A stretch of 64,000 nucleotides of DNA from assembly GCA_017889545.1 (NCBI GenBank), contig JAGFZV010000007.1, positions 82,435-146,434 on the forward strand, given 5' to 3'. Below, in pieces: positions 7,758 through 41,821 of the stretch. The position numbers were made by a program, and so were the translations under genes. The DNA is from Bacillota bacterium. Lineage in GTDB: Bacteria; Bacillota; Negativicutes; CTSoil-072. The notes under the pieces were generated by a model, which saw only the letters and a list, made by a program, of their open reading frames with translations, was not told the origin of the DNA and ran no database searches. Each line of letters starts with the position of its first letter. The stretch's first letter is position 1.

Positions 7758-7951
7758 AAAACTTTAGAAAACCCGGCTTGCGCCGAACTTTTATAGCGAC
7801 GGCGGAAGCCGTTGGTTGCACTTATGTACACCAGATAAAAAAAATTTATACTTTCTGGTGTACTAAAAAAGGAATTCGCCATAAACAGCGCAATTCCTTT
7901 TCATTCAGTGAGCCTTAGGCTGTTAACGAAGATAAAGAAGGTGAACTTAGC

Positions 7952-9579: not shown

Positions 9580-10461
9580 TTAATCGCTGTTCTCAGGCAA
9601 ACAAGCCAACAATTCATCTCTTCTCATTTTCGCATTATGGAAAAAAGCATGTACGGCCTGACGGTCTCCTCTACGAATTTTTTCGTTCAACCCTTGCAGC
9701 ATGATTTGCATCTTCTCTAAACTATCACTGATTGCTTCTTGGTTGGTCATACAAATATCGGCCCACATATCGGCATTGGAGGAGGCAATCCGCGTCGTAT
9801 CGCGAAAACCGCCTCCGGCCAACTGCCGGCCATGACCCGGATCGGGACACTCTTCGAGTAAATTCACCAACGCAGCAGCCGCCAGGTGCGGAACATGACT
9901 GAGAACAGCCGTACACCGGTCATGCGTTCCGGTATCCATGGTAGTGAGGATTGCGCCGGTTGAAGAAATCAGTTCCTCTAATAATGCGATAGCCTGTGAA
10001 GAAGCTTTTGCACCCGACATGAGGATGTACCATTTATTGCGAAAAAGATCTTTATCCGCGGCCGTAATGCCGCTTTTTTCTTTGCCAGCCATCGGATGAC
10101 CGCCAATATAATGAATGTGATTGGGCAATATTTTTGTCAATTCTTCCTGCAAATATTGTTTGGTACTTCCCACATCGGAAAGAATAGCGCCTTGTTTAAG
10201 ATGTGGAGCGATTTTTTCTACCAACGGGACGATTTGCAAAACGGGTGTACACAGAAATACAAGATCCGCATCCCGTACACTGTCACAAACATCCTCGACC
10301 ACAATATCCACGATCTGTAATTTCACAGCTTGTTCTCGGGTCAGCCTGTCCGCATCTGTTCCGGTTACTTGAAGGCAGCCTTTATTATTCTGCCGAAAAG
10401 CCAGCGCCAAAGATCCGCCGATCAAACCTAATCCAATAATGGTGATGTGCAATTTTTTCAT
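9580..10461 (-). CDS. tyrA: Prephenate dehydrogenase
   Basis: 293 aa. [14 protein letters not shown] Rossmann motif and the TyrA family pattern (HPMAG). Confidence 0.85.
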
Positions 10462-11474
10462 ACTAATGTTCTTCCCATCACATGGGCAATTGCAGCAAGA
10501 TCTTTCATCAGTAGATTAAACTTTTTCGGAGTTAGTGATTGTTTACCGTCAGATAATGCCACTGCCGGATTAGGATGGACTTCAATCATTAATCCGTCTG
10601 CACCGGCTGCCACAGCAGCCCGCGCCATCGGGCCAACCAACTTCCATACGCCGGTACCATGGCTGGGATCTACAATAACCGGCAAATGGCTAATCATTTT
10701 AATTGCGGCCACTGCGCTTAGATCCAAGGTGTTGCGTGTATAGTCTTCAAAAGTCCTTATTCCGCGTTCACATAAAATGACGTTATAATTTCCTTCATTC
10801 ATAATGTATTCTGCGGCGTTCAGCCATTCATTCAGGGTGGCTGCCATTCCCCGTTTCAGCAGTACTGGCTTATTTATTCTGCCCACTGATTTTAATAATT
10901 GGAAATTTTGCATATTCCGGGCGCCAATTTGCAGAATATCTGCACAATCCGCTACGATTGCAACAGATTGAACGTCCATCACTTCCGTAACAATCTTTAA
11001 TCCTGTTTTTTCGCGGGCTTCAGCTAATAACTCAAGTCCTTTTTCTTCTAATCCCTGGAATGCATAGGGGGACGTCCGCGGTTTAAAAGCACCGCCGCGC
11101 AAAAATTGCGCGCCGCCGGCTTTGACTATCCGCGCTGATTCGAGCAGCTGTTCACGGCTTTCTACCGCGCATGGTCCAGCCATAACTACTAGATTTTCTC
11201 CGCCTATCAGAACTCCGCCTATGTCAATTACCGTATCTTCCTGTTTAAATTCACGCGTAACCAATTTATAACTTTCGGTCACTTCTACAACTTTTTCCAC
11301 ACCATCCATCGCTTCAAGCGGCAATTCCGCCATTAACTTCTTCTCCCCTATCACGCCAATGATCGTTCTCACACGTCCTTCCGACAAATGAACTTTACAA
11401 TTGGCTGCTTCGACCCTATCTATCACTTGCTGCAATTCTTCTTTGCTCGCTTGCGGACTCATCACAATAATCAT
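10458..11474 (-). CDS. aroF: 3-deoxy-7-phosphoheptulonate (DAHP) synthase, type I-beta with an N-terminal ferredoxin-like regulatory domain
   Basis: 338 aa. AGPCAVES...KPRTSPY...GARNMQNF...DPSHG motifs of KDOPS/DAHPS Ibeta. A 4-nt overlap with tyrA implies an operon. Confidence 0.85.
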
Positions 11475-11539: not shown

Positions 11540-11865
11540 CCCGGTCGAGCATACAAAAATCCCGCCCCTGAAATCAGGGACGGGATAGATAAACCCGCGG
11601 TACCACCCTGCTTGCATTGCAAGCCGCTCGTATTTCGGGTACAGAACGTGCACATTCGATACCCTATCCTCTGCTAACGGTGGCAGTCCGGCGCGGTCTA
11701 CTCGACAAGCTTTCAACCTGCTGCTCATGGGTGTATTTCAGCCAGCCCATCTACCGGGTCTCACCCCCCCCCGGCTCTCTGAAAGACGTTTCCGACTTAC
11801 TTATCCCAATCATTGCATTTCCTGCTATATTATTGACTCTACTTTAACAAAAGCAAATCCGCCTG
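11540..11865 (-). promoter_or_regulatory. Promoter plus T-box riboswitch leader (probable tyrosine specifier UAC) controlling aroF-tyrA
   Basis: The minus strand contains AGCAGGGTGGTACCGCGGG (T-box consensus, plus 11595-11610). A downstream terminator hairpin cccgtccctgatttcaggggcggg plus T5 (plus 11556-11586). An upstream GAAAUACA specifier-loop candidate (UAC at plus 11733-11735). AGAGAG and AGUAGA stem-I elements. Promoter TTGACA-17-TAAAGT (plus 11864-11869 and 11841-11846). Confidence 0.75.
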
Positions 11866-29784: not shown

Positions 29785-30006
29785 ATGATTACAGCGGAAA
29801 ATATTGCCCGTATCAATGAGTTGGCGCGCAAAAGCCGCGAGACAGGGCTAACGGCTGAAGAGCTCACCGAGCAAGCCATGCTCCGGCGTCTCTATATCGA
29901 TCACATGAAAGCGCAGGTAAAAGCCCAGCTTGACACGATCAAACCTGAACATCACCATGACAACTGCAGTTGCGGATGTCACCATGACAAAAATGACCGT
30001 TCATGA
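29785..30006 (+). CDS. DUF896 / UPF0291 (YnzC-like) protein with a C-terminal His/Cys-rich tail
   Basis: MITAENIARINELARKSRETGLTAEELTEQAMLRRLYID matches the UPF0291 core. The tail EHHHDNCSCGCHHDKNDRS is unusual. Confidence 0.65.
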   Translation: MITAENIARINELARKSRETGLTAEELTEQAMLRRLYIDHMKAQVKAQLDTIKPEHHHDNCSCGCHHDKNDRS

Positions 30007-31180
30007 TAAAAACGACGCGATAGTTTCACAACCAAATAACCGCTGCACATCTCAAATGATTTTGTTAACCCTAGGTCACTTTTTTAGTGATTTCTACAAT
30101 AATTTTTTACCCGGCTTGCTGCCAACAGTCATAGCCGCTTTAGGGATGTCGCTGACTACCAGCGGACTTCTTGTCATGGTGTATGCCATCACATCAAGTA
30201 TTCTTCAACCTTTTTTTGGTTATTATATTGATAAAAGCGGTTATTCCTGGCTAGTATTGATTACCTTGCCCATCAGCGCCGTTTTTATCTGTACGGCAGG
30301 GTTAGCGCCTACTATCTCGGCGCTTTTTTTGTTTATCACGTTCGCCGGGCTGGGTTCAGCTCTTTTTCACCCGCTTGGTTCCAGTATGATGGGCAAAATC
30401 ACGCCGCTTGAACATAAAGGACTTGCGATGGCAATGTTCATTGGCGGCGGGAATATCGGCGTGGCCATTGCGCCGGCTATTGTTATCTATCTTATCTTTC
30501 ATTACGGCGTAAACAGTTTACCGTGGATGATCCTGCCCGCACTTGCTTTGACCATCGCTTATTATGCGTACAATACGCATCGCATCCCCATTGCCGCTCC
30601 ACAAATGGATCTCGATCCCAATGCTCCGGCCTGGTATAGATCCGTAGGCATTCTCAAGCTAAATGCGGTCATGGGACTTCGTTCCTGGGCGCAAGTGGCG
30701 ATCCCGACTTTCTTGCCGGTTTGGGTTGTCCAACAAGGTCAAGCTCCCACGGTGGCCGCAACCATGATCACAATTTTCCTCTTCGGGGGAGCCATCGGCA
30801 GCGTTGCCGGGGGCTATATCGGCGACCATTTCGGACGCAAAAACTGCATTTTATGGTCCCTGGTCTTCTGTTTGCCGACACTATACCTATTCCTGACGAG
30901 CAGCGAAATCTCAGCACTCACTTGGTTTCTGTTGTTTTTCAGCGGCGCTGCCTTGCAAAGCGCGTTGCCGGCTTCCATTATCTGGGCTCAGGAAATGATC
31001 CCGAACAACGCCGCAATGGCCTCAGGGATGATGCTCGGTCTCTCATTCGGCCTTGGCGGTCTGGGTGCGGCGATTACCGGGGCAATGGCTGATGTAATTG
31101 GCCTGCAGTCCGCGCTTGTATTCTCTTTGCTTCCTTTGGCACTGTCCATCCCTTTGACGTATAGTATTTCAGAAAAATAA
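29984..31180 (+). CDS. MFS transporter
   Basis: 12 TM helices. GHFFSDFYNNFLPGLLP and GxLxDRxGRK-like (GYIGDHFGRKN) MFS motifs. The start is ambiguous (29930/29984/30056) and overlaps the preceding gene. Confidence 0.7.
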   Translation: MTKMTVHDKNDAIVSQPNNRCTSQMILLTLGHFFSDFYNNFLPGLLPTVIAALGMSLTTSGLLVMVYAITSSILQPFFGYYIDKSGYSWLVLITLPISAVFICTAGLAPTISALFLFITFAGLGSALFHPLGSSMMGKITPLEHKGLAMAMFIGGGNIGVAIAPAIVIYLIFHYGVNSLPWMILPALALTIAYYAYNTHRIPIAAPQMDLDPNAPAWYRSVGILKLNAVMGLRSWAQVAIPTFLPVWVVQQGQAPTVAATMITIFLFGGAIGSVAGGYIGDHFGRKNCILWSLVFCLPTLYLFLTSSEISALTWFLLFFSGAALQSALPASIIWAQEMIPNNAAMASGMMLGLSFGLGGLGAAITGAMADVIGLQSALVFSLLPLALSIPLTYSISEK

Positions 31181-31260: not shown

Positions 31261-31349
31261 CCGGTCAAATTTGAAATATTGGTTGATGAGTACTATAATA
31301 AAGAGAGACATGAAAATATTACCACTTTCTATCTTGGGAGGCGATTGCA

Positions 31350-33104
31350 ATGTCTTCTTTAGCACAGATTAAAGATGTCGTGCAACAATTCGCAGAAGCT
31401 TTCAGTGCAACGCTAAAAGTCAATGTGGAAGTCTTTGACCAGATCGAACGGATTGCCGGAACAGGAACTGCCAAGCAATTAATAGGATGGCCGCTGCTGC
31501 CAACCGGAATTGTTAGAAAGCGAATATATGAAGATGGATTAAAAAAATTTATATTTGACAATCCTGGTCAGGATATTTCCTGTCAGCCTTGTCCCCGCCG
31601 AAACTGCTGCCATTATAAAAAGGCAGTACATGCCGCTTTGGAACATAATAACAAAATTATCGGCATCATCGGTATTGTAGCCGAAAATGATGAACAAGAA
31701 AAATTGATTGAATATAATAATTATTCCATGCTCAATCTTGTTGATAAAATAGCGAATTTAATAACGGCCAAAGTCGAAGAGCATCAAATATTAAAACAGG
31801 TTAAAACCTATGCAGAACTTATGCACGTGGCAACAAATGCCATTGATAAGGGTATGCTTATGCTTGACAATGAACTTCGAATTATCGATATAAATGATTA
31901 TTTGATCAATAAATTAGTGTTACAAAGAAAATTCGTATTACACCAGCATGTGCGTACCATATTGCCGTCATTAATACTTTATAAAAACGCTTCAGCGCAG
32001 TTGAATATTGAACAACAGGAAATCGTATATTCTGTCAACAACAAATACATCTATCTTATCTGCACTTTGAAGCCCATTAGCATCAACAATGAATTAACTG
32101 GCTGCCTCTGCTTAATTGAAGACTATAAAGACACCACAGAACGGGCATACGCCACTATTACAAAGCAGCAGCCGATCTACTTGAGTGATATTATTGGTTT
32201 AGACCAACAATTCACCGATTTCAAAAATACTGTCAAGAATGTGTCCTTAAACGGTTCAACCATTTTACTCACAGGAGAGACCGGCACCGGCAAAGAATTG
32301 TTTGCCAGAGCCATACATTCAGAAAGTTCTAGAAGTAACGGTCCTTTTGTTACAATTAATTGCGGCGGAATTCCAGAGACATTGTTAGAAAGTGAATTGT
32401 TCGGATATGAAAAAGGGGCTTTTACCGGAGCAAACAGTATGGGTAAACACGGAAAATTTTTTATGGCTAACAAAGGTACATTATTTCTTGATGAAATTGA
32501 AGCCCTGCCTCTTTATCTCCAGCCAAAACTGCTGCGTGTAATCGAAAGCAAAGAGATCGAAAGGATCGGCGGAGTGCGAACCATTCCGATCGACGTCCGA
32601 ATTGTTGCCGCAACAAATGTTATGTTGGATGAAATGGTGCAGAAAAAGGAATTTAGGGAAGATTTATTTTACCGACTCAATGTCGTTGCTTTATTTATTC
32701 CGCCATTGCGAGACCGAAAAACGGATATTCTCGTATTAACTGAACATTTTATAAAAAAATTTTCAGCTAAATTCAATAAAAATATTATTGGATTGAGCGA
32801 TCCTGTAAATCATATATTTTGTACTTATCATTGGCCTGGAAATGTACGAGAATTGCAAAATGCAATTGAGTATGCGATCAATATGGAACAAAGCCATTAT
32901 ATAACAGTTGAAAATCTACCGATGCAATTGAAAAATAGACAAAAAGAAGATCATGCACATACATTGCATGGAATGGAACTGGATAATCTCAAGCAAGCAT
33001 TAGATCGATTTGGCTGGACAGAAGCTGGAAAAATCGAAGCCGCAAACTATTTAGGAATCAGTCGTTCCACTATCTATCGAAAAATAAAAAAATTTAATTT
33101 GTAA
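31350..33104 (+). CDS. Sigma-54-dependent transcriptional activator (bEBP) with an N-terminal Cys-containing sensor region, an AAA+ domain and a C-terminal Fis-type HTH
   Basis: 584 aa. GETGTGKELFARAIH Walker A. GAFTGA sigma-54 contact motif (GYEKGAFTGA). C-terminal HTH AANYLGISRSTIYRKIKK. N-terminal region carries CQPCPRRNCCH. Confidence 0.9.
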   Translation: MSSLAQIKDVVQQFAEAFSATLKVNVEVFDQIERIAGTGTAKQLIGWPLLPTGIVRKRIYEDGLKKFIFDNPGQDISCQPCPRRNCCHYKKAVHAALEHNNKIIGIIGIVAENDEQEKLIEYNNYSMLNLVDKIANLITAKVEEHQILKQVKTYAELMHVATNAIDKGMLMLDNELRIIDINDYLINKLVLQRKFVLHQHVRTILPSLILYKNASAQLNIEQQEIVYSVNNKYIYLICTLKPISINNELTGCLCLIEDYKDTTERAYATITKQQPIYLSDIIGLDQQFTDFKNTVKNVSLNGSTILLTGETGTGKELFARAIHSESSRSNGPFVTINCGGIPETLLESELFGYEKGAFTGANSMGKHGKFFMANKGTLFLDEIEALPLYLQPKLLRVIESKEIERIGGVRTIPIDVRIVAATNVMLDEMVQKKEFREDLFYRLNVVALFIPPLRDRKTDILVLTEHFIKKFSAKFNKNIIGLSDPVNHIFCTYHWPGNVRELQNAIEYAINMEQSHYITVENLPMQLKNRQKEDHAHTLHGMELDNLKQALDRFGWTEAGKIEAANYLGISRSTIYRKIKKFNL

Positions 33105-33142
33105 GCCACCGATCTATCTTCACAATTAGAAAAACGTTATTT

Positions 33143-33182
33143 GCCTGATTGATTCAATCAGGCAAATGACGTTTTTCTTTTT
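33143..33182 (+). terminator. Perfect 12-bp inverted repeat just after the activator gene; possible terminator or operator
   Basis: TTGCCTGATTGA-T-TCAATCAGGCAA. A T-rich tract (gtttttcttttt) starts 8 nt downstream. Confidence 0.4.
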
Positions 33183-33195
33183 CATCACAACCCAT

Positions 33196-33262
33196 GATAT
33201 GAGATGGTATCTCATATCAATATGACATGTCATCTCATGTCGCGTTGACATGAGATGACATA
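33196..33262. promoter_or_regulatory. Cluster of inverted repeats; candidate upstream activator sites for the sigma-54 activator
   Basis: ATATGAGAT-ggt-ATCTCATAT (33197-33217). ATGTCATCTCATGTC-gcgttg-ACATGAGATGACAT (33227-33261). Shared TGAGAT/ATCTCA core, positioned about 100-160 nt upstream of the -24/-12 element. Confidence 0.6.
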
Positions 33263-33356
33263 ATTTGCACACTAAATTTTTGTTCATGGAACTTATTTTC
33301 CTCGCAAACCTTGAAGAACAACGGTATTATTTGTATTTTTTGAAAATTCATTTATT

Positions 33357-33373
33357 TGGCACATAATATGCAT
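33357..33373 (+). promoter_or_regulatory. Sigma-54 (-24/-12) promoter of the CoA-transferase operon
   Basis: TTGGCACATAATATGCAT matches TGGCAC-N5-TTGCA with correct GG/GC spacing. Lies about 50 nt upstream of the RBS AAAGGAGG. Confidence 0.8.
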
Positions 33374-33421
33374 TACTAACAAGTGATTGTATATAACATT
33401 CATTGTAAAGGAGGTTTTTGG

Positions 33422-34993
33422 ATGGCAAAGTTTATGACCGCCGAAGAAGCCGTACAACTCATAAAAAATGCTGATACGGTAGCCATCTCTGGATTTTTAG
33501 GCATGGGCCACCCAGAAGAAATTTCATTGGCAGTCGAAAAAAAATTTTTAGAAACCGGCACCCCACACGATCTTACTCTGACCTTTGGCGCCAGTCAGAA
33601 TGACGGCAAAGGAAATTGGGGACTCAACCGCTGGGGAAAAGAAGGATTGGTCAAACGCATCATAGCCGGTCATTGGGGTTTGCAACCCGACATGGTAAAA
33701 CTGGCAACGGAAAACAAAGTTGAAGCCTATAATTTCCCTCAGGGTGTAATGATGCATCTATATCGGGCCATTTCCGGTAAAAAACCAGGAATTTTAACTC
33801 ATGTTGGTCTAAAAACATTTGTTGATCCACGGGAAAAAGGCGGAAAATTGAATGACAAAACAATAGACGATTATGTCAGCGTTATGAAAATAGACGGAAA
33901 AGACTATTTATTCTACAAGTCATTCCCTATTGATGTTACGATCATTCGAGGAACAACAGCGGATGAAAAAGGAAATATTACGATCGAAAAAGAAGGAATT
34001 GCACTTGAATTTTTAACTTTGGCGCTGGCAGCGCGGGCATGCGGCGGCATTGTTATTGCCCAAGTAGAAAGAGTAGTAAAATCCGGAACGTTAGACGCGA
34101 TGCAAGTGAAGGTTCCCGGCATCATGGTAGACGCCATTGTCGTTGCTGCACCTGAGAACCATTGGCAGTCTACCGCAGAACCCTATGATCCGGCCTTGTC
34201 GGGAAATATCAAGATCCCTTTGGACAGCATACCGCCATTATCATTGAACGAACGAAAAATCATCTGCCGCCGGTGCGCAATGGAACTGATGCCAAATTCA
34301 GTTGTCAATTTAGGTATTGGCATGCCGGAGGGCGTTGGGTCAGTTGCAGCGGAAGAAGGTTTTTGCGACTCCCTCACTATGTCGGTTGAGCCTGGTGTAA
34401 TTGGCGGCGTCCCGCAAGGTGGAAAGCGTTTTGGCTGTTCAGTAAATCCAGAAGCGATCATTGATCATCCCTATAGCTTCGATTTTTATGATGGCGGCGG
34501 TTTAGATCTGACGGTGCTTGGCATGGCGGAAATGGATCAAAAAGGAAACGTAAATGTCAGTAAATTCGGACCGAAAATTGCCGGTGCCGGAGGATTTATC
34601 AACATCACCCAAAGTACAAATAACGTCATTTTCTGTGGAACAATGACTGCCGGTGGATTAAAGCTGGGCGTAAGAGATGGAAAACTTTTAATTTTACAGG
34701 AGGGAAAAATTAAAAAGCTGGTCAACGAAGTTGAACAAATTACCTTCAGCGGCGATTACGGCAGAGAAAGCGGCCAAAAAATTCTTTATGTAACAGAAAG
34801 AGCAGTGTTTGAACTACGGCCAGAAGGCGTAACCCTGACTGAAATAGCCCCTGGTATTGATTTGGAAAAAGATGTTTTAGGTCAAATCAATTTTCGACCT
34901 AAAATTTCATCAACGCTTGCAATAATGGATCCACGGATTTTCCAGGACGAACCAATGCAGCTCAAAAATGATATTATGGCAAAAATTGAATAA
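33422..34993 (+). CDS. Acyl-CoA:carboxylate CoA-transferase, propionate CoA-transferase (Pct/YdiF) family
   Basis: Start at MAKFMTAEEAV (RBS GGAGG). Strong resemblance to Pct-type enzymes (SGF.G.G.PE, GHW, FINITQ). Catalytic-Glu region EMDQKGNVNVS. Confidence 0.8.
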   Translation: MAKFMTAEEAVQLIKNADTVAISGFLGMGHPEEISLAVEKKFLETGTPHDLTLTFGASQNDGKGNWGLNRWGKEGLVKRIIAGHWGLQPDMVKLATENKVEAYNFPQGVMMHLYRAISGKKPGILTHVGLKTFVDPREKGGKLNDKTIDDYVSVMKIDGKDYLFYKSFPIDVTIIRGTTADEKGNITIEKEGIALEFLTLALAARACGGIVIAQVERVVKSGTLDAMQVKVPGIMVDAIVVAAPENHWQSTAEPYDPALSGNIKIPLDSIPPLSLNERKIICRRCAMELMPNSVVNLGIGMPEGVGSVAAEEGFCDSLTMSVEPGVIGGVPQGGKRFGCSVNPEAIIDHPYSFDFYDGGGLDLTVLGMAEMDQKGNVNVSKFGPKIAGAGGFINITQSTNNVIFCGTMTAGGLKLGVRDGKLLILQEGKIKKLVNEVEQITFSGDYGRESGQKILYVTERAVFELRPEGVTLTEIAPGIDLEKDVLGQINFRPKISSTLAIMDPRIFQDEPMQLKNDIMAKIE

Positions 34994-35005
34994 GGAGGAC
35001 AAATC

Positions 35006-36142
35006 GTGAATTTCACTTTCACAGAAGATCAGGAACTCATCCGAGCTATGGTTCGGGAATTTGCTCAGGCAGAAATTGCACCGAGATCAGCCCATCTGGA
35101 CGAAACCGGAGAATTTCCTGCTGACACCATGCAACGACTAGCTGAGCTAGACCTTACCGGAATGCCTTATCCGCAGATATATGGCGGTGCTGCCGCAGAT
35201 TATGTCAGTTACGCCATTGTTATCGAAGAAATTTCACGCGCCTGTTCGTCTACCGGGGTCATTCTTGCCGTTCATACTTTGGCCGGAATTCCGATTTATC
35301 AATTCGGGACGGAGGAACAAAAACAACTCTGGCTGCCGAAGCTCATTGGGTACCAGGCCTTAGGAGCGTTTGCCATCACTGAACCCGCAGCAGGCAGCGA
35401 TGCCGGCTCACTGCAAACAACGGCAGTGCCGGCTGGAGATAGCTATATATTAAACGGCACCAAGACATTTATCACAAACGGCGCTGAAGCAGGAATATTC
35501 ATCGTCATGGCTTTGACCAAAACCGGTATTGGAACAAAAGGAATTAGTGCTTTTATTGTCGAGAAAGGCACGCCCGGATTTACTATCGGTAAGCATGAAA
35601 GAAAGATGGGCATCCGTGGCAGCAGTACTACCGAACTGATTTTTGCCAACTGCCGGATCCCAAGCGCAAATCGGATAGGGAAAGAAGGTGACGGCTTTAA
35701 AATTGCAATGGCTGCTCTCGACGGCGGTCGCATCAGCATTTCCGCCCAGTCAACAGGGATTGCGCAGGCCTGTTTGGATGAAGCAATTGCTTATTCCAAA
35801 GAACGCGTACAATTTAACCGGCCGATTTCGTCCAATCAGGCCATTCAGTGGATGCTGGCAGAGATGGCTGCCGACATCAGCGCAGGCAGACTATTAACCT
35901 ACAAAGCGGCTTACCTGAAGCAAATCGGCAAACCGTTCACTATGGAGGCAGCCATGGCCAAACTATTCGCATCCCAAATGGCGGTGCGCTGTGCCACAAA
36001 GGCAGTACAAATTCATGGCGGCTACGGCTATATTAAAGATTTTAAAGTAGAACGTCTTTATCGGGATGCGCGCATTCTCGAGATTTACGAAGGTACTTCC
36101 GAGGTGCAAAAAATGGTTATTGCCGGCAACCTCTTGCGGTGA
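35006..36142 (+). CDS. Acyl-CoA dehydrogenase (short-chain/butyryl-CoA dehydrogenase-like)
   Basis: 378 aa. Acyl-CoA DH fold with catalytic-base region YEGTSEVQ and an FAD-binding pattern. Confidence 0.85.
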   Translation: MNFTFTEDQELIRAMVREFAQAEIAPRSAHLDETGEFPADTMQRLAELDLTGMPYPQIYGGAAADYVSYAIVIEEISRACSSTGVILAVHTLAGIPIYQFGTEEQKQLWLPKLIGYQALGAFAITEPAAGSDAGSLQTTAVPAGDSYILNGTKTFITNGAEAGIFIVMALTKTGIGTKGISAFIVEKGTPGFTIGKHERKMGIRGSSTTELIFANCRIPSANRIGKEGDGFKIAMAALDGGRISISAQSTGIAQACLDEAIAYSKERVQFNRPISSNQAIQWMLAEMAADISAGRLLTYKAAYLKQIGKPFTMEAAMAKLFASQMAVRCATKAVQIHGGYGYIKDFKVERLYRDARILEIYEGTSEVQKMVIAGNLLR

Positions 36143-36175
36143 TACATAAATTAAATTAACAGGAGGAGAAAAGTT

Positions 36176-37786
36176 ATGGCATTGAAAACAAAAGAACAGT
36201 ATCAGGAGAGCATCCGAAATCGAAAACCGATGGACGTTTGGTTTCTCGGCGAAAAGGTTGACGATGTGACTACCTTCCCCCCGTTGGCGGCCAGCTTTGC
36301 AGCCATATCAAAAGTATATGAGTTAACTGGCGACCCTGGTTGGAAGGATATGCTCACAACAACGTCGCACCTTACCGGCGAAACCGTCAGTATTTACAAT
36401 GCACCGCTGCAATCGGCAGAGCAAGCCAATAACAAAACCCGCGCAGCGCGTGCTTTAGCCGAGGTAATCGGTTGCTGTACACATCGTTGTACCGGTTCGG
36501 AAGGGTTTGCCGGTTTAGGTCCCTGTACCTATGACATGGACCATGATTTGGGAACAAATTATTTCGAACGTTTTACCAAATTTATGGAATATGTACAATC
36601 GAATGATTACAGCTGCACTGTCACCGTAACTGACGTAAAAGGGCTGCGCACCTTGCCTCCGAATAAGCAGCCGGATCGGGATATGTATGTTCATATCGAT
36701 GAATATCGCAAGGACGGAATTGTTATCAGCGGTTATAAAGCAAATCAAACCGGAATTTTATTTGCTCATGAAGTAATTATTGTTCCCACAACAGCCATGA
36801 AACCGGAAGATAAGGATTTTGCTGTAGCGTGTGCAATTCCTGCTGATGCTCCCGGAATTACCTATGTATTGGGCCGTACTCCGCAAGACAAACGTTTCTT
36901 TGAAGTAAACGAAGATATTGAAGGCATTGACCTTGGAAAAATGTACGCTGACCATCAAGCACTTGCTTATTTTGATCATGTATTTGTTCCAAACGAAAGA
37001 GTGTTTTTATGCGGTGAAACCGAATATGTCGGCCGTCTGTTAAATTACTTTACGGCTGTTCATCGTTTGACGGCTGGTGGCTGCAAGGCTGGCGGCTGCT
37101 CGGCATTAGCCGGTGCAACCAGCCTAATTTCCGACATGATTGGGGTTAATAAAGCCGGCCATATTAAAGAAAAATTATCAGAAATGGCAATGACGGCAGA
37201 AACATGCTACGGTCTTTCTCTGGCTGCCGGGACTGAAGGCTTTAAACATCCCAGCGGATTTTGGATCCCCAATCCATTGCTTGCCCATACCACAAAATTC
37301 ACATGCACCTCAGCGCCCTTCAATGCAGTCCGTACTGCACGCGAAATTATCGCCGGAACCGGCGAAACTGCCTGTTCCGAATTAGACATGCGTAATCCGA
37401 CAATCGGCAAAATGGTTCAAAAAGCATTCAATCCCGGCAATCCTGCATATGACGCCTTTGACCGTTTAAGAGCCACCCGTTTTGTAGAACATATGGTTCG
37501 AGGATCCAACTGGACAGCGATGGCCTTGCATGGCGGCGGCAACTCCGAAGCTGCTCGTATGATGGCTGGCCGCTTTACTGATTGGAAACATTTGCAGGAC
37601 ATGGTTAAAGTAGCTACCGGAATTGAAAAAGACCCCATCTTTTGCAAAGATGTGTTGGATTCCATCGGCAGGCGCGCGGGACGAATTGATACTACACTGG
37701 ATCTGCCTACTATGAGTGACGTACCCGTTGAAAGTAAAAAAGTAGTTTTTGAAAAAAGAGAGCTTGTGGGATCCGGAAAAAAATAA
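36176..37786 (+). CDS. 4-hydroxybutyryl-CoA dehydratase / vinylacetyl-CoA delta-isomerase (AbfD) family protein
   Basis: 536 aa. CCTHRC (C-x3-C) and H-x6-C (HRLTAGGCKAGGC) match the [4Fe-4S] ligand pattern of AbfD. HpaB-like fold. Confidence 0.7.
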   Translation: MALKTKEQYQESIRNRKPMDVWFLGEKVDDVTTFPPLAASFAAISKVYELTGDPGWKDMLTTTSHLTGETVSIYNAPLQSAEQANNKTRAARALAEVIGCCTHRCTGSEGFAGLGPCTYDMDHDLGTNYFERFTKFMEYVQSNDYSCTVTVTDVKGLRTLPPNKQPDRDMYVHIDEYRKDGIVISGYKANQTGILFAHEVIIVPTTAMKPEDKDFAVACAIPADAPGITYVLGRTPQDKRFFEVNEDIEGIDLGKMYADHQALAYFDHVFVPNERVFLCGETEYVGRLLNYFTAVHRLTAGGCKAGGCSALAGATSLISDMIGVNKAGHIKEKLSEMAMTAETCYGLSLAAGTEGFKHPSGFWIPNPLLAHTTKFTCTSAPFNAVRTAREIIAGTGETACSELDMRNPTIGKMVQKAFNPGNPAYDAFDRLRATRFVEHMVRGSNWTAMALHGGGNSEAARMMAGRFTDWKHLQDMVKVATGIEKDPIFCKDVLDSIGRRAGRIDTTLDLPTMSDVPVESKKVVFEKRELVGSGKK

Positions 37787-37916
37787 AGAAATTTTTCCTG
37801 TAATATAAAATGCTTCTCTTAGGAGGAACGACTATCGTAAGCCGTTCCTCCTAATGCACTCACATAAAAAAACAGTATCACTTGCAGTCTTAAAAATTCT
37901 TGAATGGGGGGATAAA

Positions 37917-39239
37917 ATGGACAAGGTTGCAACTAACCCTAAAGGTCTCGATACTACATTGGTTGCACAAATGCTCCGGCTTCGGTGGTACATTTATGGA
38001 ATATTGTGTCTAGGCTATTTTTTGGTCTATTTTCACAGAGTTTCTACTGCCGTAGTAGCACCCGAATTAACTGAGGCATTTGGATTAACTGCAGCTAGCC
38101 TGGGACTGCTAAGTTCTGCTTATTTTTATCCTTATGCATTGGCACAAATTCCTTCAGGAATATTAACTGATTATTTAGGTCCAAGAAAAACAGTTACGTT
38201 TTTTATTCTTGTTGCTGCAATTGGCGCTTTTCTCTTTGGTACAGCCTCAACATATTCTTGGGCTATTGTGGGCCGGTCATTAGTGGGTCTCGGTGTTGCT
38301 TTCATCTATATTCCGGTTATGAAGATTCTTGCTGAATGGTTTCGCCAGCATGAGTTTGCAACACTCACCGGTCTGCTGTTATCCGTCGGCAATATTGGCG
38401 CTCTTTCGGCCGCTGCGCCGCTCAGCCTGCTGGTTGGAGCGGCCGGATGGCGAAATTCATTTATTTATATTGGAGCAGTTACTGTAATATTGGCCATTGG
38501 TTGTTGGTTAATTATTCGTAACAAGCCGCAAGATATGGGCTTGCCGACTGTCTACGACATAGACGGATCTGCACCTCCGGCAGGTTCTACAGATTCACTG
38601 ACACTCAAAGAATCCATGAAGCTTATTGTCAGCAACCGAAATTTTTGGCTGTTATCTCTATGGTATTTCGTATTTTATGGTACGGTAATGGGTTTTCAAG
38701 GCTTATGGGCCACACCGTATCTTATCGACACGCAATCGTTAGCCAAACCAGCGGCAATACAAATTTTAACTTACATCGCATTAGGAATGATTTGCGGATG
38801 CCCTCTCTCTGGTTATCTGTCTGACCGTGTGCTGCATTCCCGTAAAAAAGTACTAATCATTGGCACTGTCTTATATACTTTTTCTTGGTTGCTTCTTATA
38901 GTCATATCCAACTCACAGCCCGCCTTCATCCCCTATCTCTTTTTTGCTATGGGCTTCTTCGGCGGTTTTTTTGTCGTAATTTATGCTTGGTTTAAAGAAT
39001 TGATGCCTTCAAAAATCGTTGGTACTGCAATTGGCGCAATGAACTTCTTTCCGTTTGTCGGCGGAGCTATTTTCCAACAAATAATGGGCAGTATTATTGG
39101 CTCTTATCAACGCATCAACGGCGCCTATCCATTGGATGCATATATTAATTCTTTTTGGTTCTGTTTTGCTTCTTTGGCAATCGTTACCATCGCGATACCC
39201 TTTGCTTCGGAAAATCAGAGTTTAAAACGGAAAGCTTGA
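37917..39239 (+). CDS. MFS transporter (probably a carboxylate/organic-acid porter) ending the sigma-54 operon
   Basis: Start at MDKVATNPKGL after RBS GGGGGG. 12 TM helices. The ORF-track start is 37854. Confidence 0.7.
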   Translation: MDKVATNPKGLDTTLVAQMLRLRWYIYGILCLGYFLVYFHRVSTAVVAPELTEAFGLTAASLGLLSSAYFYPYALAQIPSGILTDYLGPRKTVTFFILVAAIGAFLFGTASTYSWAIVGRSLVGLGVAFIYIPVMKILAEWFRQHEFATLTGLLLSVGNIGALSAAAPLSLLVGAAGWRNSFIYIGAVTVILAIGCWLIIRNKPQDMGLPTVYDIDGSAPPAGSTDSLTLKESMKLIVSNRNFWLLSLWYFVFYGTVMGFQGLWATPYLIDTQSLAKPAAIQILTYIALGMICGCPLSGYLSDRVLHSRKKVLIIGTVLYTFSWLLLIVISNSQPAFIPYLFFAMGFFGGFFVVIYAWFKELMPSKIVGTAIGAMNFFPFVGGAIFQQIMGSIIGSYQRINGAYPLDAYINSFWFCFASLAIVTIAIPFASENQSLKRKA

Positions 39240-39250
39240 TCATCTGTTAA

Positions 39251-39310
39251 TAAAAATAATGCAGCGAACCGGCTAATTTGATTAAAAGCCGGTTCGCTGC
39301 ATTATTTTTA
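39251..39310. terminator. Bidirectional rho-independent terminator
   Basis: aatgcagcgaaccggct...agccggttcgctgcatt, a 17-bp stem flanked by an A-run and a T-run. Confidence 0.8.
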
Positions 39311-39322
39311 TACATTTGATCC

Positions 39323-40294
39323 TTATTTTACTGTTGCAATCATGCTGCGAATATCGATTGGTTTCGTCAGCATCCCGTTTTGTTTCAGAAATTCCTGAGT
39401 TTTTTCCAAATCTATGATGTCACTTTCCTTAATGGTTGGATCAAAATCATATAATCCAACCATGTTTTTCACCTGCTCTAAAGAAAGCCCGGTTTCTTGT
39501 GCCGTCATGCCATAAATCTCTTCGGGATGATCCTTCATATACTGCAAGCTTGCTGTATGAACATTCAAGTATCGCTTTACTAAATCCGGATATTTTGCCA
39601 AAAAATCTTCACGCACGGCAATCACAATTGTCGCGTCCAACAGCCCTTCGCCAGTAGTAACAATATGCGCGCCCGCTTCGATTGCTTTCGATACTGCCGG
39701 TCCTGCGATTAATGCCGCTTCGACATTGCCATTCAGCATTGCCGTCATCGCCGGAGGGATACCCATGTTTATGAAAGCAACATCATCTGCTTTCAGGCCT
39801 TCTTTCGCTTGCGCAGCTAACAGCAATTGATGAAGTATAGTCCCTTTCGGACCGGCTACTTGCTTTCCTTTTAAATCCGCAACGGTTTTAATCGCCGGGT
39901 CTTTTGCCATGAGTGTAAATGCCTTCGGCGCCCTGCTGTACATACCGATGACTTTTAATTTTACTCCGTTTGATGCCGCCAATATGGCTGAAGTACCGCC
40001 TAAAGCATTGGAAAAATCTAAGGAGCCTGCTGCCATCGCTTCCGTCATTTTAGGTCCTTCGGTAATTTCAGGAAAAACTACTTTTATATTGTCTTTCCCG
40101 AATTCCTTTTCGAATAAGTTCAGCTTCTTTTCCACTATGGAAGGGACATTCAGCGGTAATTTTACATATGAAATATTGATCGTGTCTGCTTTGGGCGCAG
40201 CGGCCGGCTGGTCCTTCTTCCCTTGCCCTCCGCAACCTGCCGTTATCATTGCCGCAAGAAGAATCGGCACAAGAAATTTTCCAATCACTTTCAT
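39323..40294 (-). CDS. ABC transporter substrate-binding lipoprotein, NitT/TauT (SsuA/NMT1-like) family
   Basis: Lipobox LAAMITAGC. SsuA/TauA-like periplasmic binding fold. Confidence 0.7.
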   Translation of the reverse strand: MKVIGKFLVPILLAAMITAGCGGQGKKDQPAAAPKADTINISYVKLPLNVPSIVEKKLNLFEKEFGKDNIKVVFPEITEGPKMTEAMAAGSLDFSNALGGTSAILAASNGVKLKVIGMYSRAPKAFTLMAKDPAIKTVADLKGKQVAGPKGTILHQLLLAAQAKEGLKADDVAFINMGIPPAMTAMLNGNVEAALIAGPAVSKAIEAGAHIVTTGEGLLDATIVIAVREDFLAKYPDLVKRYLNVHTASLQYMKDHPEEIYGMTAQETGLSLEQVKNMVGLYDFDPTIKESDIIDLEKTQEFLKQNGMLTKPIDIRSMIATVK

Positions 40295-40326
40295 TTTACA
40301 CATCTCCTTTTCCTAATTGGGAAACT

Positions 40327-41070
40327 CTAATCACTCATAATGGTATTCATAATATCTTCACGCAAAAGGAAGAAAGCTTGTTCCGTTATGATGCGCGGGT
40401 AGTCAAGCGGAATTTCGACTTCCCGGACCACCCGTCCGGAATCCAGAATCACCGTTTTCTGGCCCAAAAAAACAGCTTCATCGACATCATGGGTAACAAA
40501 AACAATCGTTTTTCGCTGATATTGGAAAATATCAACCATTTCCCTTTGTAAATTTCGCCGCGTAAATGCGTCCAATGCACCCAATGGCTCGTCCATTAAG
40601 ATCAAATCCGGATCATAACATAACGTTCTGCCGACTGCAACCCGCTGCGCCATGCCGCCGGAAATCTGCCGGGGATATGCATCCTTGAACCGTTTCAGAC
40701 CAAGCATGGAGAGGAACCGTTCCACTGTTGCCTGCACTTTTTTGCTGTCCGGTTCATGGATAAGAGCCATCGCCATATTTTGTTCCACTGTCAACCAGGG
40801 CATTAAGCGAGGCTCCTGAAAAACCATACTGATCCTCTGCTCTTCACGGCTTTTCACTTTGCCTTCAACAGTAAACGTGATATTTCCGGATGTCAATGGT
40901 TCTAAATCGCATATCAGACGTAATAATGTGCTTTTTCCGCAGCCGCTTTTCCCCACAACAGTTACAAAACTGCCATCAGCAATCGACAGATTTACATTAG
41001 ACAAGGCATGGACCGGAACTCCTTTGATATAATAAACTTTTGTCGCTCCCCGAATTTCAACCCCTGCCAT
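40327..41070 (-). CDS. ABC transporter ATP-binding protein (NitT/TauT family)
   Basis: GKSGCGKST Walker A. LSGGMAQRVAVGR signature. ILMDEPLGALD Walker B. Confidence 0.85.
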   Translation of the reverse strand: MAGVEIRGATKVYYIKGVPVHALSNVNLSIADGSFVTVVGKSGCGKSTLLRLICDLEPLTSGNITFTVEGKVKSREEQRISMVFQEPRLMPWLTVEQNMAMALIHEPDSKKVQATVERFLSMLGLKRFKDAYPRQISGGMAQRVAVGRTLCYDPDLILMDEPLGALDAFTRRNLQREMVDIFQYQRKTIVFVTHDVDEAVFLGQKTVILDSGRVVREVEIPLDYPRIITEQAFFLLREDIMNTIMSD

Positions 41071-41821
41071 AGTCCACCTGCCTGTCTTCCCACGGCATAA
41101 AATAATCCGTAAGTTTTAAGAAGCCATAATCAATACAATAGCCAAAAACACCAATCGTGATAATACCAACGAAGATAATATCCGGACGGGAAATCTGCTC
41201 CGCATCAATAATCATGTAGCCAATGCCGGAGGATGCCGCAATCAATTCAGCACCGATCAGAGACCGCCAACTGTATCCCAGTCCAAGACGCATTCCCAAA
41301 ATAATCGATGGCAAAGCGGAAGGAAGAATAATTTTCCGAAATCGTTCTAATGCAGTAAACTCGAAAACCTGGCCCACCTCAAGGAGTTTTTTGTCGCATC
41401 CTAACACACCGTTCAACGTGTTCAAAAAAACAGGAAAAAATGTGGCCAGCATAATAATCGCTATTTTGGGAGGCTCACCAATACCAAACCACAAAATCAA
41501 TATGGGAATGCAGGCCAATGGCGGCACATGCCGGATAAAATCCAAAATCGGATCAAAATAATCATTCCACTTTTTGTTCATTCCGAGGATAACCGCCAGC
41601 GGAAATGCCAGCATAAACGTTAAGGCAAACCCAAATAAAACGCGATATAAACTGATGCCGATATGCTTAAACAATACTCCGGTTTCAATAAGGCTGGACA
41701 TCGTACCGGCAATCGTAACCGGCGAAGGCAAAAGATAACTATTGAAAAAACCGGTTAGGGAACCGAAAAGCCATAACAACACGATCACAAGGGGGATGAT
41801 TATTCCTTTGATCAGTTTCAT
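41057..41821 (-). CDS. ABC transporter permease (NitT/TauT family)
   Basis: 254 aa, 6 TM helices, EAA-like loop. 14-nt overlap with the ATPase gene. Confidence 0.8.
   Translation of the reverse strand: MKLIKGIIIPLVIVLLWLFGSLTGFFNSYLLPSPVTIAGTMSSLIETGVLFKHIGISLYRVLFGFALTFMLAFPLAVILGMNKKWNDYFDPILDFIRHVPPLACIPILILWFGIGEPPKIAIIMLATFFPVFLNTLNGVLGCDKKLLEVGQVFEFTALERFRKIILPSALPSIILGMRLGLGYSWRSLIGAELIAASSGIGYMIIDAEQISRPDIIFVGIITIGVFGYCIDYGFLKLTDYFMPWEDRQVDYGRG

Follow-up and report, generated by a model that had tools for sequence, protein, structure and literature searches.

The textbook example of a radical dehydration without B12, S-adenosylmethionine or ATP is that by 4-hydroxybutyryl-coenzyme A (CoA) dehydratase, AbfD, and the proposed start of its reaction relies on Tyr296, Glu455 and Glu257. 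Here we describe a sigma-54-controlled operon whose AbfD-like protein has lost all three residues. The operon and its activator gene lie at positions 31,350 to 39,239 of a 64,000-nt stretch of DNA (the window) from a bacterium of the Bacillota (Negativicutes; CTSoil-072; assembly GCA_017889545.1, contig JAGFZV010000007.1, positions 82,435 to 146,434), and may serve the catabolism of a short hydroxy-monocarboxylate.

Comparison with described systems

The window enzyme resembles AbfD (structures 1u8v and 6vjr) in its HpaB/acyl-CoA dehydrogenase (ACAD)-like fold, its full-length alignment, the same three Cys and one His ligands, T190 and K300, as well as in its acyl-CoA context with an adjoining CoA-transferase. 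It differs by an identity of only 33–44% and by the replacement of E257, Y296, E455, A460 and Q101 by Q, A, M, G and H (or F). Moreover, the window system is under sigma-54 control and has no adjoining 4-hydroxybutyrate dehydrogenase, and in some genomes its 'Q-A-M' type of enzyme is paired with an EFR1 ferredoxin or with Etf/FixCX.

Sigma-54 control of COG2368/abfD-type genes in Clostridia is already known as a computational prediction. COG2368 was noted as sigma-54-regulated mainly in Clostridia (PMC12316311), and a XanR regulon 'abfD-nifU-hyp-ach-golB' was predicted in Clostridium (Nie et al. 2019, PMC6615313). The latter resembles our system in combining a sigma-54 activator with an AbfD-family gene, an acetyl-CoA hydrolase/transferase-family gene and Fe-S assembly genes, as in locus L053 of our survey. 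However, these predictions were filed under 'butyrate/butanol synthesis', and the divergence of the active site went unnoticed there. In contrast to XanR, the window activator has a GAF-Cys3 sensor instead of a dual PAS sensor, another binding motif and another type of transferase beside it.

The acrylate pathway of Clostridium propionicum and Megasphaera elsdenii (Pct, lactoyl-CoA dehydratase, acryloyl-CoA reductase) likewise combines a Pct-family transferase, an AcrC-like dehydrogenase and a hydroxyacyl-CoA dehydratase, and it couples CoA recycling to enoyl-CoA reduction. Yet, the window dehydratase belongs to the AbfD family and is not a 2-hydroxyacyl-CoA dehydratase with an ATP-dependent activator. 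Furthermore, the window lacks etfAB, and relatives have transferases of the AbfT type and genes for C4 beta-oxidation. The activator finally resembles PrdR, with which its PAS, AAA+ (GAFTGA) and helix-turn-helix (HTH) parts align at 370 bits. The layout of activator gene, terminator, palindromes, -24/-12 promoter and catabolic operon is that of PrdR and other Firmicute PAS activators. However, the PrdR model does not reach the N-terminal 160 residues, a GAF-fold domain of its own in which CxxCx5C is invariant.

An AbfD subfamily without the catalytic Tyr/Glu set

The AbfD-like protein matches the Pfam families HpaB_N and HpaB (250.9 and 139.7 bits), and it aligns with C. aminobutyricum AbfD (PDB 1u8v, E 2.5e-95) and with the 4-hydroxybutyryl-CoA dehydratase of Nitrosopumilus maritimus (6vjr, E 1.2e-77). 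We aligned it with 115 database homologues and C. aminobutyricum AbfD. The [4Fe-4S] ligands C99, C103, H292 and C299 of AbfD correspond to C101, C105, H296 and C303 of the query and are invariant in all 115 homologues, in line with the initial annotation, which had described every Cys/His ligand as conserved. T190 and K300 are invariant across the alignment too. In contrast, E257, Y296 and E455 of AbfD are replaced by Q261, A300 and M449 in the query, and by the same residues in its 94 nearest homologues (94/94, four of them with F for M). A pairwise phmmer alignment matched these residues in the same way, and its posterior support was high. In the Q-A-M group, A460 is also replaced by G, and Q101 by H in Bacillota and by F in other phyla, while E/Y/E/A/Q is retained by the true AbfDs that we aligned.

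Identity amounts to 45–100% inside the Q-A-M group but only 33–44% to the E-Y-E group, with 18 group-specific positions, and Q-A-M homologues span Bacillota, Eisenbacteria and others. By alignment, the AbfD-like protein is thus a member of a separate subfamily within the AbfD family and not an AbfD orthologue. Public annotation does not reflect this distinction: the NCBI pipeline names Q-A-M proteins '4-hydroxyphenylacetate 3-hydroxylase N-terminal domain-containing protein', and JGI names them AbfD.

T190, E257, Y296 and E455 reportedly play an important part in the dehydratase activity of the C. aminobutyricum enzyme, and the E260Q and T194V variants of the N. maritimus enzyme have lowered activity (bioRxiv 10.1101/2020.02.05.935528). 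Judging from the residues, the window enzyme must depart from canonical 4-hydroxybutyryl-CoA dehydratase in its substrate, in how it initiates catalysis, or in both. The changes Y>A, A>G and E>M would enlarge the pocket and lower its polarity, as far as residue types rather than a structure can tell. The protein presumably carries the [4Fe-4S] and FAD (flavin adenine dinucleotide) cofactors of its family. Hence, the description of the protein as an AbfD-type ketyl-radical enzyme was right in family and ligands but overstated, since E257, Y296 and E455 are replaced.

The alignment also contains a third subgroup of the AbfD family (P0103, P0104, P0107–P0109, P0115 and P0116), which has Cys, His and Ser at positions 257, 296 and 455 and Gly at 460. 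These proteins keep the cluster ligands and are 43–53% identical to true AbfDs.

Genomic context of the subfamily

Our context survey covered 41 species-level loci, complemented by contig look-ups. In Bacillota, the AbfD-like gene belongs to a core module that starts with the activator gene, followed by a transferase of the AcetylCoA_hydro family (~434 aa) and the AbfD-like gene, and the linkage of activator and enzyme recurs in ~20 other Bacillota genomes. Module carriers include Megasphaera paucivorans, M. sueciensis, M. hexanoica, Eubacterium, Oscillospiraceae, Heliobacteriaceae and metagenome-assembled genomes (MAGs) of Clostridia. The module transferase is nearest to solved 4-hydroxybutyrate CoA-transferases (3eh7, E 5e-115). 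The window is peculiar in its Pct/YdiF-type transferase, shared only with locus L020, and in its different activator. The earlier statement that the system uses a Pct- rather than an AbfT-type transferase therefore holds for the window itself, but this is a local peculiarity, as most relatives pair the enzyme with an AbfT-type transferase.

Several loci extend the core module. A Bcd-like dehydrogenase gene adjoins the AbfD-like gene in the window and in L005, L010 and L047, and the window dehydrogenase is 57–61% identical to its three counterparts. In L009, the module goes on with crotonase, 3-hydroxyacyl-CoA dehydrogenase and thiolase genes, and both L009 and L010 insert a major facilitator superfamily (MFS) gene whose product scores above the cut-off of the SfMCT L-lactate MFS transporter model (450 vs 320 bits). 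An acyl-CoA ligase is added in L019. Since the module includes genes for enoyl-CoA reduction or beta-oxidation, the product of the AbfD-like enzyme is most simply a 2-enoyl-CoA, which probably is then reduced or beta-oxidised. NifS/NifU or an Mrp-type Fe-S ATPase are added in L053, L025 and L029, with the order activator, AbfD-like gene, NifS, NifU in L053, and this context suggests that the Fe-S cluster matters to the enzyme. Homologues at 50–56% identity in MAGs of Eisenbacteria, Coatesbacteria and Ignavibacteria have housekeeping neighbours and give no functional clue. No inspected locus has an adjacent 4-hydroxybutyrate dehydrogenase or succinate-semialdehyde dehydrogenase gene, and no aminotransferase gene was seen in the inspected loci.

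Four rival explanations bear on these data, which we weighed in the order isofunctional dehydratase, isomerase only, net reductive enzyme and fortuitous cluster. Under the first, the Q-A-M enzyme would have the function of a 4-hydroxybutyryl-CoA dehydratase/vinylacetyl-CoA isomerase but work with other residues, for instance the subfamily-specific His103, so that the operon would serve plain 4-hydroxybutyrate use. This would be consistent with the AbfT-family transferases of the relatives, with the monocarboxylate MFS, crotonase-Hbd-thiolase and Bcd-like genes in the context, and with the retention of the cluster ligands, T190 and K300. In addition, a chicken-gut study lists an annotated 4-hydroxybutyryl-CoA dehydratase, which may or may not be of the Q-A-M subfamily, among the proteins that Megasphaera expresses in vivo. 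Yet, the replacement of all three non-ligand catalytic residues is invariant over 94 sequences and several phyla, the identity to proven AbfDs is only 33–44%, and the two dehydrogenase genes just mentioned adjoin none of the inspected loci. We therefore consider plain isofunctionality doubtful, if a serious competitor.

Alternatively, the enzyme might have lost radical dehydration and only isomerise 3-enoyl-CoA to 2-enoyl-CoA, acting on beta,gamma-unsaturated acids or on the 3-pentenoyl-CoA of the 5-aminovalerate route. Canonical AbfD is also a vinylacetyl-CoA isomerase (PMC3994512), the loss of Glu/Tyr/Glu fits the loss of the redox-dependent half-reaction, and the later steps of 5-aminovalerate fermentation are without assigned genes (PMC13495136). 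However, the strictly conserved Fe-S ligands, together with the neighbouring NifS/NifU and Mrp-type ATPase genes, speak for a continued functional need of the cluster. Furthermore, 3-enoic acids in free form are rare substrates, which fits poorly with a module that is common and comes with a transporter and a transferase of its own. An enzyme confined to isomerisation thus seems unlikely.

Electron-transfer genes form a further element of the context. EtfBA, FixCX and an EFR1-family flavodoxin-ferredoxin lie beside the AbfD-like gene in Dehalobacterium, Formimonas and other loci. They occur as flanks in L004/L005/L047/L019, L012, L020 and L051/L052, which comprise Peptococcaceae and others (EtfBA-FixCX and EFR1, the latter at 82.5 bits, cut-off 75). 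These neighbours suggest that the Q-A-M subfamily has a dedicated electron-transfer partner, and that some of its members exchange electrons with external carriers. The same Peptococcaceae-type loci encode a small conserved protein of 117 aa without family match, and some of them add a membrane protein of 455–490 aa without Pfam match. The Peptococcaceae FixABCX genes also made us consider gamma-butyrobetaine/carnitine-type chemistry, which we set aside, because CaiA is a distant match to the dehydrogenase (198 bits) and the MFS carriers are of the anion type.

The pairing with redox partners lends itself to a third explanation, a net redox reaction in which a gamma or alpha substituent is removed reductively with electrons from a dedicated ferredoxin, which would include acrylate-like conversion of lactate to propionate. 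Besides the adjoining EFR1-type or Etf/FixCX genes in Peptococcaceae and other loci, this idea can draw on the Pct-family transferase of the window, on its dehydrogenase, which has the acryloyl-CoA reductase AcrC as best NCBIfam match, and on the lactate-type MFS of the relatives. However, the AcrC score is below the cut-off (520.7 vs 640), and the dehydrogenase is equally close to ordinary Bcd. Dehydration of alpha-hydroxyacyl-CoA requires an ATP-driven activator system, which is absent here. The context of L009 is that of C4-type beta-oxidation, and no ferredoxin or ETF (electron-transfer flavoprotein) gene was found in the window. On balance, a net reductive role is improbable.

Predicted sigma-54 control of the operon

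The predicted sigma-54 unit is complete, with an activator, upstream palindromes and a -24/-12 promoter ahead of an acyl-CoA operon of four genes, all located as the initial annotation had claimed. The promoter TGGCACATAATATGCA has the GG-N10-GC spacing and is the sole zero-mismatch match to TGGCAC-N5-WTGCW in the 64 kb. It lies ~50 nt upstream of the transferase start, AAAGGAGG-ATG. The Clostridiales sigma-54 consensus is TTGGCATNNNNNTTGCT (PMC6615313). The element had been called a textbook case, which is justified for the unique exact match but not for the -12 element, which reads ATGCA instead of the consensus TTGCW.

The palindromes are TGATATGAGAT-N3-ATCTCATATCA and ATGTCATCTCATGTC-N5-GACATGAGATGACAT, both with perfect arms. 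They are located 100–175 nt upstream of the promoter, within the expected range of ~80–200 bp, which makes them candidate sites that the activator would bind. The promoter is identical in L003, a locus of the closest relative (see below), where it lies within a 45-nt block that is almost unchanged between diverged flanks. Palindrome 1 is not kept in L003. Palindrome 2 is kept, and a C>T change in one arm is mirrored by a G>A change in the other, as predicted for a dimer-binding site.

Analogous -24/-12 elements were found in six lineages (L006, L009, L010, L011, L022 and L023). In other lineages, the spacer between activator and operon contains TGGCAY-N5-TTGCT promoters and TGATGCA-N4-5-TGCATCA palindromes. 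In the Megasphaera loci (L001 at ~8620, L021 at ~9930, L027 at ~9940 and L028 at ~8580), the module is preceded by TGGCAT/TGGTAC/CGGCAC-N5-TTTCATAT, in which a conserved TTTCA replaces the usual TTGCA/TTGCT as -12 element.

The activator and its GAF-Cys3 sensor

The activator matches the Pfam families Sigma54_activat (E 6e-67), AAA_lid_14 and HTH_8 as well as, weakly, PAS_9 at residues 168–258, and its translation contains GAFTGA and the Walker A motif GETGTGKE. Its best NCBIfam match is PrdR, with 370.3 bits against a cut-off of 795 and over residues 106–583 only. We rejected the identification as PrdR, because the score is below the cut-off and the N-terminus lies outside the model. Similarly, none of ten sensor-domain homologues that we scored is a PrdR equivalog.

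The N-terminal sensor carries the motif C78-Q-P-C81-P-R-R-N-C86-C87-H. No Pfam model matches the domain at the sequence level, and word-indexed protein searches with it, as a single sequence or a profile, gave no matches. An exhaustive HMMER search of 1.84 billion representatives, however, retrieved 359 homologues, of which 103 had E <= 1e-10. Most of the homologues are activators of 580–600 aa with the layout of the window activator. C78, C81 and C87 (CxxCx5C) are invariant in 150 of 150 sensor sequences, while C86 of the window is not conserved. The family also conserves a D-x3-R-x-AGTG motif. The N-terminal 165 residues bear no relation to the dual-PAS N-termini that the activators of other lineages have (14–18% identity).

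Structure prediction of the N-terminus had been suggested, with a GAF or PAS domain and a metal or Fe-S site in mind, and the AlphaFold2 (AF2) model, searched with Foldseek, points to a GAF fold with a CxxCx5C loop. With an alignment of 31 sequences, the model reached a predicted local distance difference test (pLDDT) score of 95.5; the alignment was needed, as the single sequence gave a pLDDT of 32. Foldseek assigned the model with probability 1.00 to the GAF domains of SpoVT, CodY, Nlh2 and PtsP, at template modelling (TM) scores of ~0.55–0.6. In the model, the sensor is a GAF-fold domain whose three cysteines lie between the strands 66–69 and 91–99, and it is plausible that CxxCx5C holds a metal or Fe-S site. 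A CdaR-type 'diacid recognition' domain, considered at first, was dropped, as it has no Pfam match and the fold search gives GAF. Hence, the sensor that had been reported as unrecognised, with a Cys motif, indeed lacks a Pfam model but is no orphan, with its GAF fold and ~360 cluster representatives.

CoA-transferase, dehydrogenase and carrier

The CoA-transferase (PF01144) has fused alpha and beta parts, and its best structural match is Escherichia coli YdiF (2ahu, E 1.2e-135, residues 4–512), which agrees with its earlier assignment to the Pct family, more precisely to the YdiF/Pct/FadX type. Its translation contains SVEPGVIGG, which fits the EXGXXG motif with the catalytic Glu, and its score against NCBIfam FadX is 431 bits, short of the cut-off of 750. 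The ATG that follows AAAGGAGG is its likely start.

The dehydrogenase is a general ACAD member with three domains and a YEGTSE motif, nearest in the PDB to 5ol2_C ('Acyl-CoA dehydrogenase', E 2e-136). It does not qualify as an AcrC/Bcd equivalog, given an AcrC score below the cut-off and the lack of an Etf homologue in the window. Indeed, tblastn searches of the whole 64-kb window found no homologue of Etf, FixCX, an AbfT-type transferase or an OFA-type MFS, and they agree with the initial annotation that etfAB and crotonase are absent.

The MFS carrier matches MFS_1 at 1.5e-55. Among NCBIfam subfamilies it scores best against PgtP, D-galactonate and lactate carriers, but reaches none of their cut-offs. 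The ATG at 37854 falls inside a hairpin, which makes the ATG at 37917, with its G-rich ribosome-binding site upstream, the likelier start.

Locus layout

The activator, CoA-transferase, acyl-CoA dehydrogenase, AbfD-like and MFS genes are five co-directional genes on the + strand (Table 1). The operon genes are separated by 12–70 nt, with terminators at both ends. The hairpin in the 134-nt spacer between the AbfD-like and MFS genes has 12 perfect base pairs and no T run, and in it TTAGGAGGAACG pairs with its complement, as does an AGGAGG. The spacer folds at -28.2 kcal/mol (z = -2.1). The hairpin may act in the processing or stability of the RNA, or may mask a sequence resembling a ribosome-binding site. 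The terminator hairpin downstream of the operon has a loop of more than 8 nt, and hence was not listed by the terminator scan.

Table 1. Features of the sigma-54-controlled locus (positions in the window)
Feature	Position	Strand	Basis or remark
Candidate sigma-70-like promoter TTGAAA-17-TATAAT before activator gene	31271..31299	+	Consensus scan, 11/12 matches; pattern match only
Sigma-54 enhancer-binding activator, 584 aa	31350..33104	+	GAF-like Cys3 sensor, PAS, AAA+ with GAFTGA, HTH_8
N-terminal sensor domain, aa 1–165	31350..31844	+	GAF fold (predicted); CxxCx5C loop C78/C81/C87 at nt 31581–31610
Intrinsic terminator 3' of activator gene	33128..33186	+	25-nt arms and T run; kept in L003
Palindrome 1, candidate activator site	33195..33219	.	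11-nt arms
Palindrome 2, candidate activator site	33227..33261	.	15-nt arms
Sigma-54 -24/-12 promoter TGGCACATAATATGCA	33357..33372	+	Consensus match
Family I CoA-transferase, YdiF/Pct/FadX type	33422..34993 (open reading frame from GTG 33383)	+	PF01144
Short-chain acyl-CoA dehydrogenase/enoyl-CoA reductase, Bcd- or AcrC-like	35006..36142	+	Three ACAD domains
AbfD-family [4Fe-4S]/FAD protein (cofactors predicted), Q-A-M subfamily, 536 aa	36176..37786	+	HpaB_N and HpaB domains
Hairpin between AbfD-like and MFS genes	37819..37854	+	Sequence and RNA fold
MFS carrier, organic-anion type	37854 or 37917..39239	+	MFS_1
Bidirectional terminator hairpin, common to operon and convergent SsuA-like gene	39253..39309	.	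Read from sequence

Closest relative and history of the locus

The closest relative, with ~78% DNA identity, is a MAG of an uncultured member of the Negativicutes (GCA_964446265.1, loci L003 and L008). L003 is collinear with the window over the promoter region and the AbfD-like gene, but lacks window positions 33390–36127 (transferase and dehydrogenase) and 37792–39251 (MFS). Directly 3' of its promoter, L003 keeps AATCTCTTGCGGTGA, which encodes NLLR-stop and corresponds to the 15 nt that end the dehydrogenase gene. The loss shows at 9940–10003 of L003, compared with 33385–33395 and 36128–36178 of the window. Because the 3' end of the dehydrogenase gene is retained, L003 is the product of a clean deletion of the transferase and dehydrogenase genes, and in this lineage the operon with four genes is the older arrangement. 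Between L003 and the window, the AbfD-like protein is 93% identical and its DNA only 82%, which indicates that the enzyme is under purifying selection.

The absence of three of the four operon genes from the closest relative might also be taken as a sign of a chance juxtaposition or a decaying cluster, in which promoter and palindromes are fortuitous and the genes functionally unlinked. In the same vein, one-mismatch matches to TGGCAC-N5-WTGCW are no more frequent in the window than expected by chance. Yet, the exact promoter match is unique and lies inside a conserved block, the genes are closely spaced on one strand between terminators, the linkage of activator and enzyme recurs in ~20 genomes, and the genes are intact and under purifying selection. 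A fortuitous cluster was already disfavoured and is very improbable.

Proposed function

On the observed gene identities, regulatory elements, subfamily signature and synteny we base a functional proposal whose substrate class and direction of flux we infer. The operon would serve the sigma-54-dependent catabolism of a short hydroxy-monocarboxylate, likeliest 4-hydroxybutyrate or a C5–C6 gamma- or delta-hydroxy analogue. We give this proposal an even chance. The activator would sense its signal through the GAF(Cys3)-PAS module, bind the palindromes ~140–175 bp upstream and spend ATP to open the -24/-12 promoter. The acid would be imported by the MFS carrier and converted to its acyl-CoA by the YdiF/Pct-type transferase at the cost of another acyl-CoA. 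The AbfD-family Fe-S flavoenzyme would then form a 2-enoyl-CoA by dehydration and/or a double-bond shift. The Bcd-like dehydrogenase would reduce this to a saturated acyl-CoA, from which the transferase would recycle CoA; alternatively, the enoyl-CoA would enter beta-oxidation. The exact substrate, as the initial annotation had pointed out, cannot be read from the sequence. 4-Aminobutyrate and 5-aminovalerate were set aside as direct CoA substrates on chemical grounds, because their amino-acyl-CoAs lactamise.

Several observations weigh against this proposal. Since Q, A and M take the place of E257, Y296 and E455 throughout the subfamily, the canonical chemistry of gamma-dehydration cannot be taken for granted. 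The window also lacks the ETF genes on which a Bcd-type reductase normally depends (tblastn). In L003, the AbfD-like gene stands alone directly behind the same sigma-54 promoter, and homologues in distant phyla have no transferase nearby. The pairing of Q-A-M enzymes with EFR1 or Etf/FixCX in several genomes would fit a net transfer of electrons better than a redox-neutral dehydration. Moreover, our literature search on AbfD paralogues, AbfD-like enzymes and 4-hydroxybutyrate use by Megasphaera found no characterisation of the Q-A-M subfamily.

Possibly, the Q-A-M proteins form a new class of Fe-S/flavin acyl-CoA enzymes with the AbfD fold. Their substrate would not be 4-hydroxybutyryl-CoA but another gamma-substituted acyl-CoA or 4- or 5-hydroxyvaleryl-CoA, for which no anaerobic dehydratase and isomerase genes have yet been assigned. 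In addition or instead, their catalysis would begin without the Tyr/Glu relay, possibly with an external EFR1-type ferredoxin. In this Negativicutes lineage, such an enzyme would be switched by an undescribed GAF domain with a CxxCx5C metal or Fe-S site. We regard this as quite conceivable, though somewhat short of an even chance.

Neighbouring features

A second MFS gene (29930–31180) lies directly 5' of the activator gene on the same strand and keeps this position in the relative, which is without the operon's own MFS gene. Based on synteny of only two close genomes, it may be part of the system. On the other side, genes for an SsuA/SsuB/SsuC-like aliphatic-sulfonate ABC transporter (39323–41821, - strand) converge on the operon. 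The SsuA_fam match has 181.9 bits against a cut-off of 163.5, and the SsuABC-like genes are syntenic in the relative. A link of this transporter to the operon found no support, as the genes are on the opposite strand and their conservation is synteny with one close relative only.

Further away, a T-box leader (11573–11822, - strand; Rfam RF00230, 121 bits, gathering score 93) sits upstream of the - strand genes at 9580–11474. An intergenic element of ~75–105 nt occurs at 7764–7868 of the window and at 9485–9557 and 14325–14424 of L003. It is 86–95% identical between the window and the two L003 sites, compared with ~78% for the surrounding DNA, and includes a hairpin, GTACACCAGA...TCTGGTGTAC. 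At gathering thresholds it has no match in Rfam, and it could be a small mobile repeat or RNA.

Implications

As far as the literature we found goes, three aspects are new: the subfamily-wide loss of the AbfD catalytic set, the three-gene module in gut and fermenter Bacillota, and the GAF-Cys3 activator family. The sensor family is a second, smaller lead. In a 2026 study, C. viride had three annotated 4-hydroxybutyryl-CoA dehydratase genes, and the 5-hydroxyvalerate dehydrogenase of 5-aminovalerate fermentation was a genomic singleton, so that the pathway had no dedicated gene cluster (PMC13495136). These findings leave an open slot that AbfD paralogues of this kind might fill.

A large, conserved sister group of AbfD, common in gut and fermenter anaerobes such as Megasphaera, Eubacterium and Oscillospiraceae, thus keeps the cluster without any of the three residues on which the proposed mechanism relies. 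Because the three-gene module is present in cultured strains, its function is directly testable. If the Q-A-M enzymes still dehydrate 4-hydroxybutyryl-CoA, the proposed mechanism needs rethinking. If they have another activity, a new function is currently labelled '4-hydroxybutyryl-CoA dehydratase' or '4-hydroxyphenylacetate hydroxylase domain protein'. Where such enzymes are counted as AbfD, metagenomic estimates of the 4-aminobutyrate/succinate route to butyrate could be distorted.

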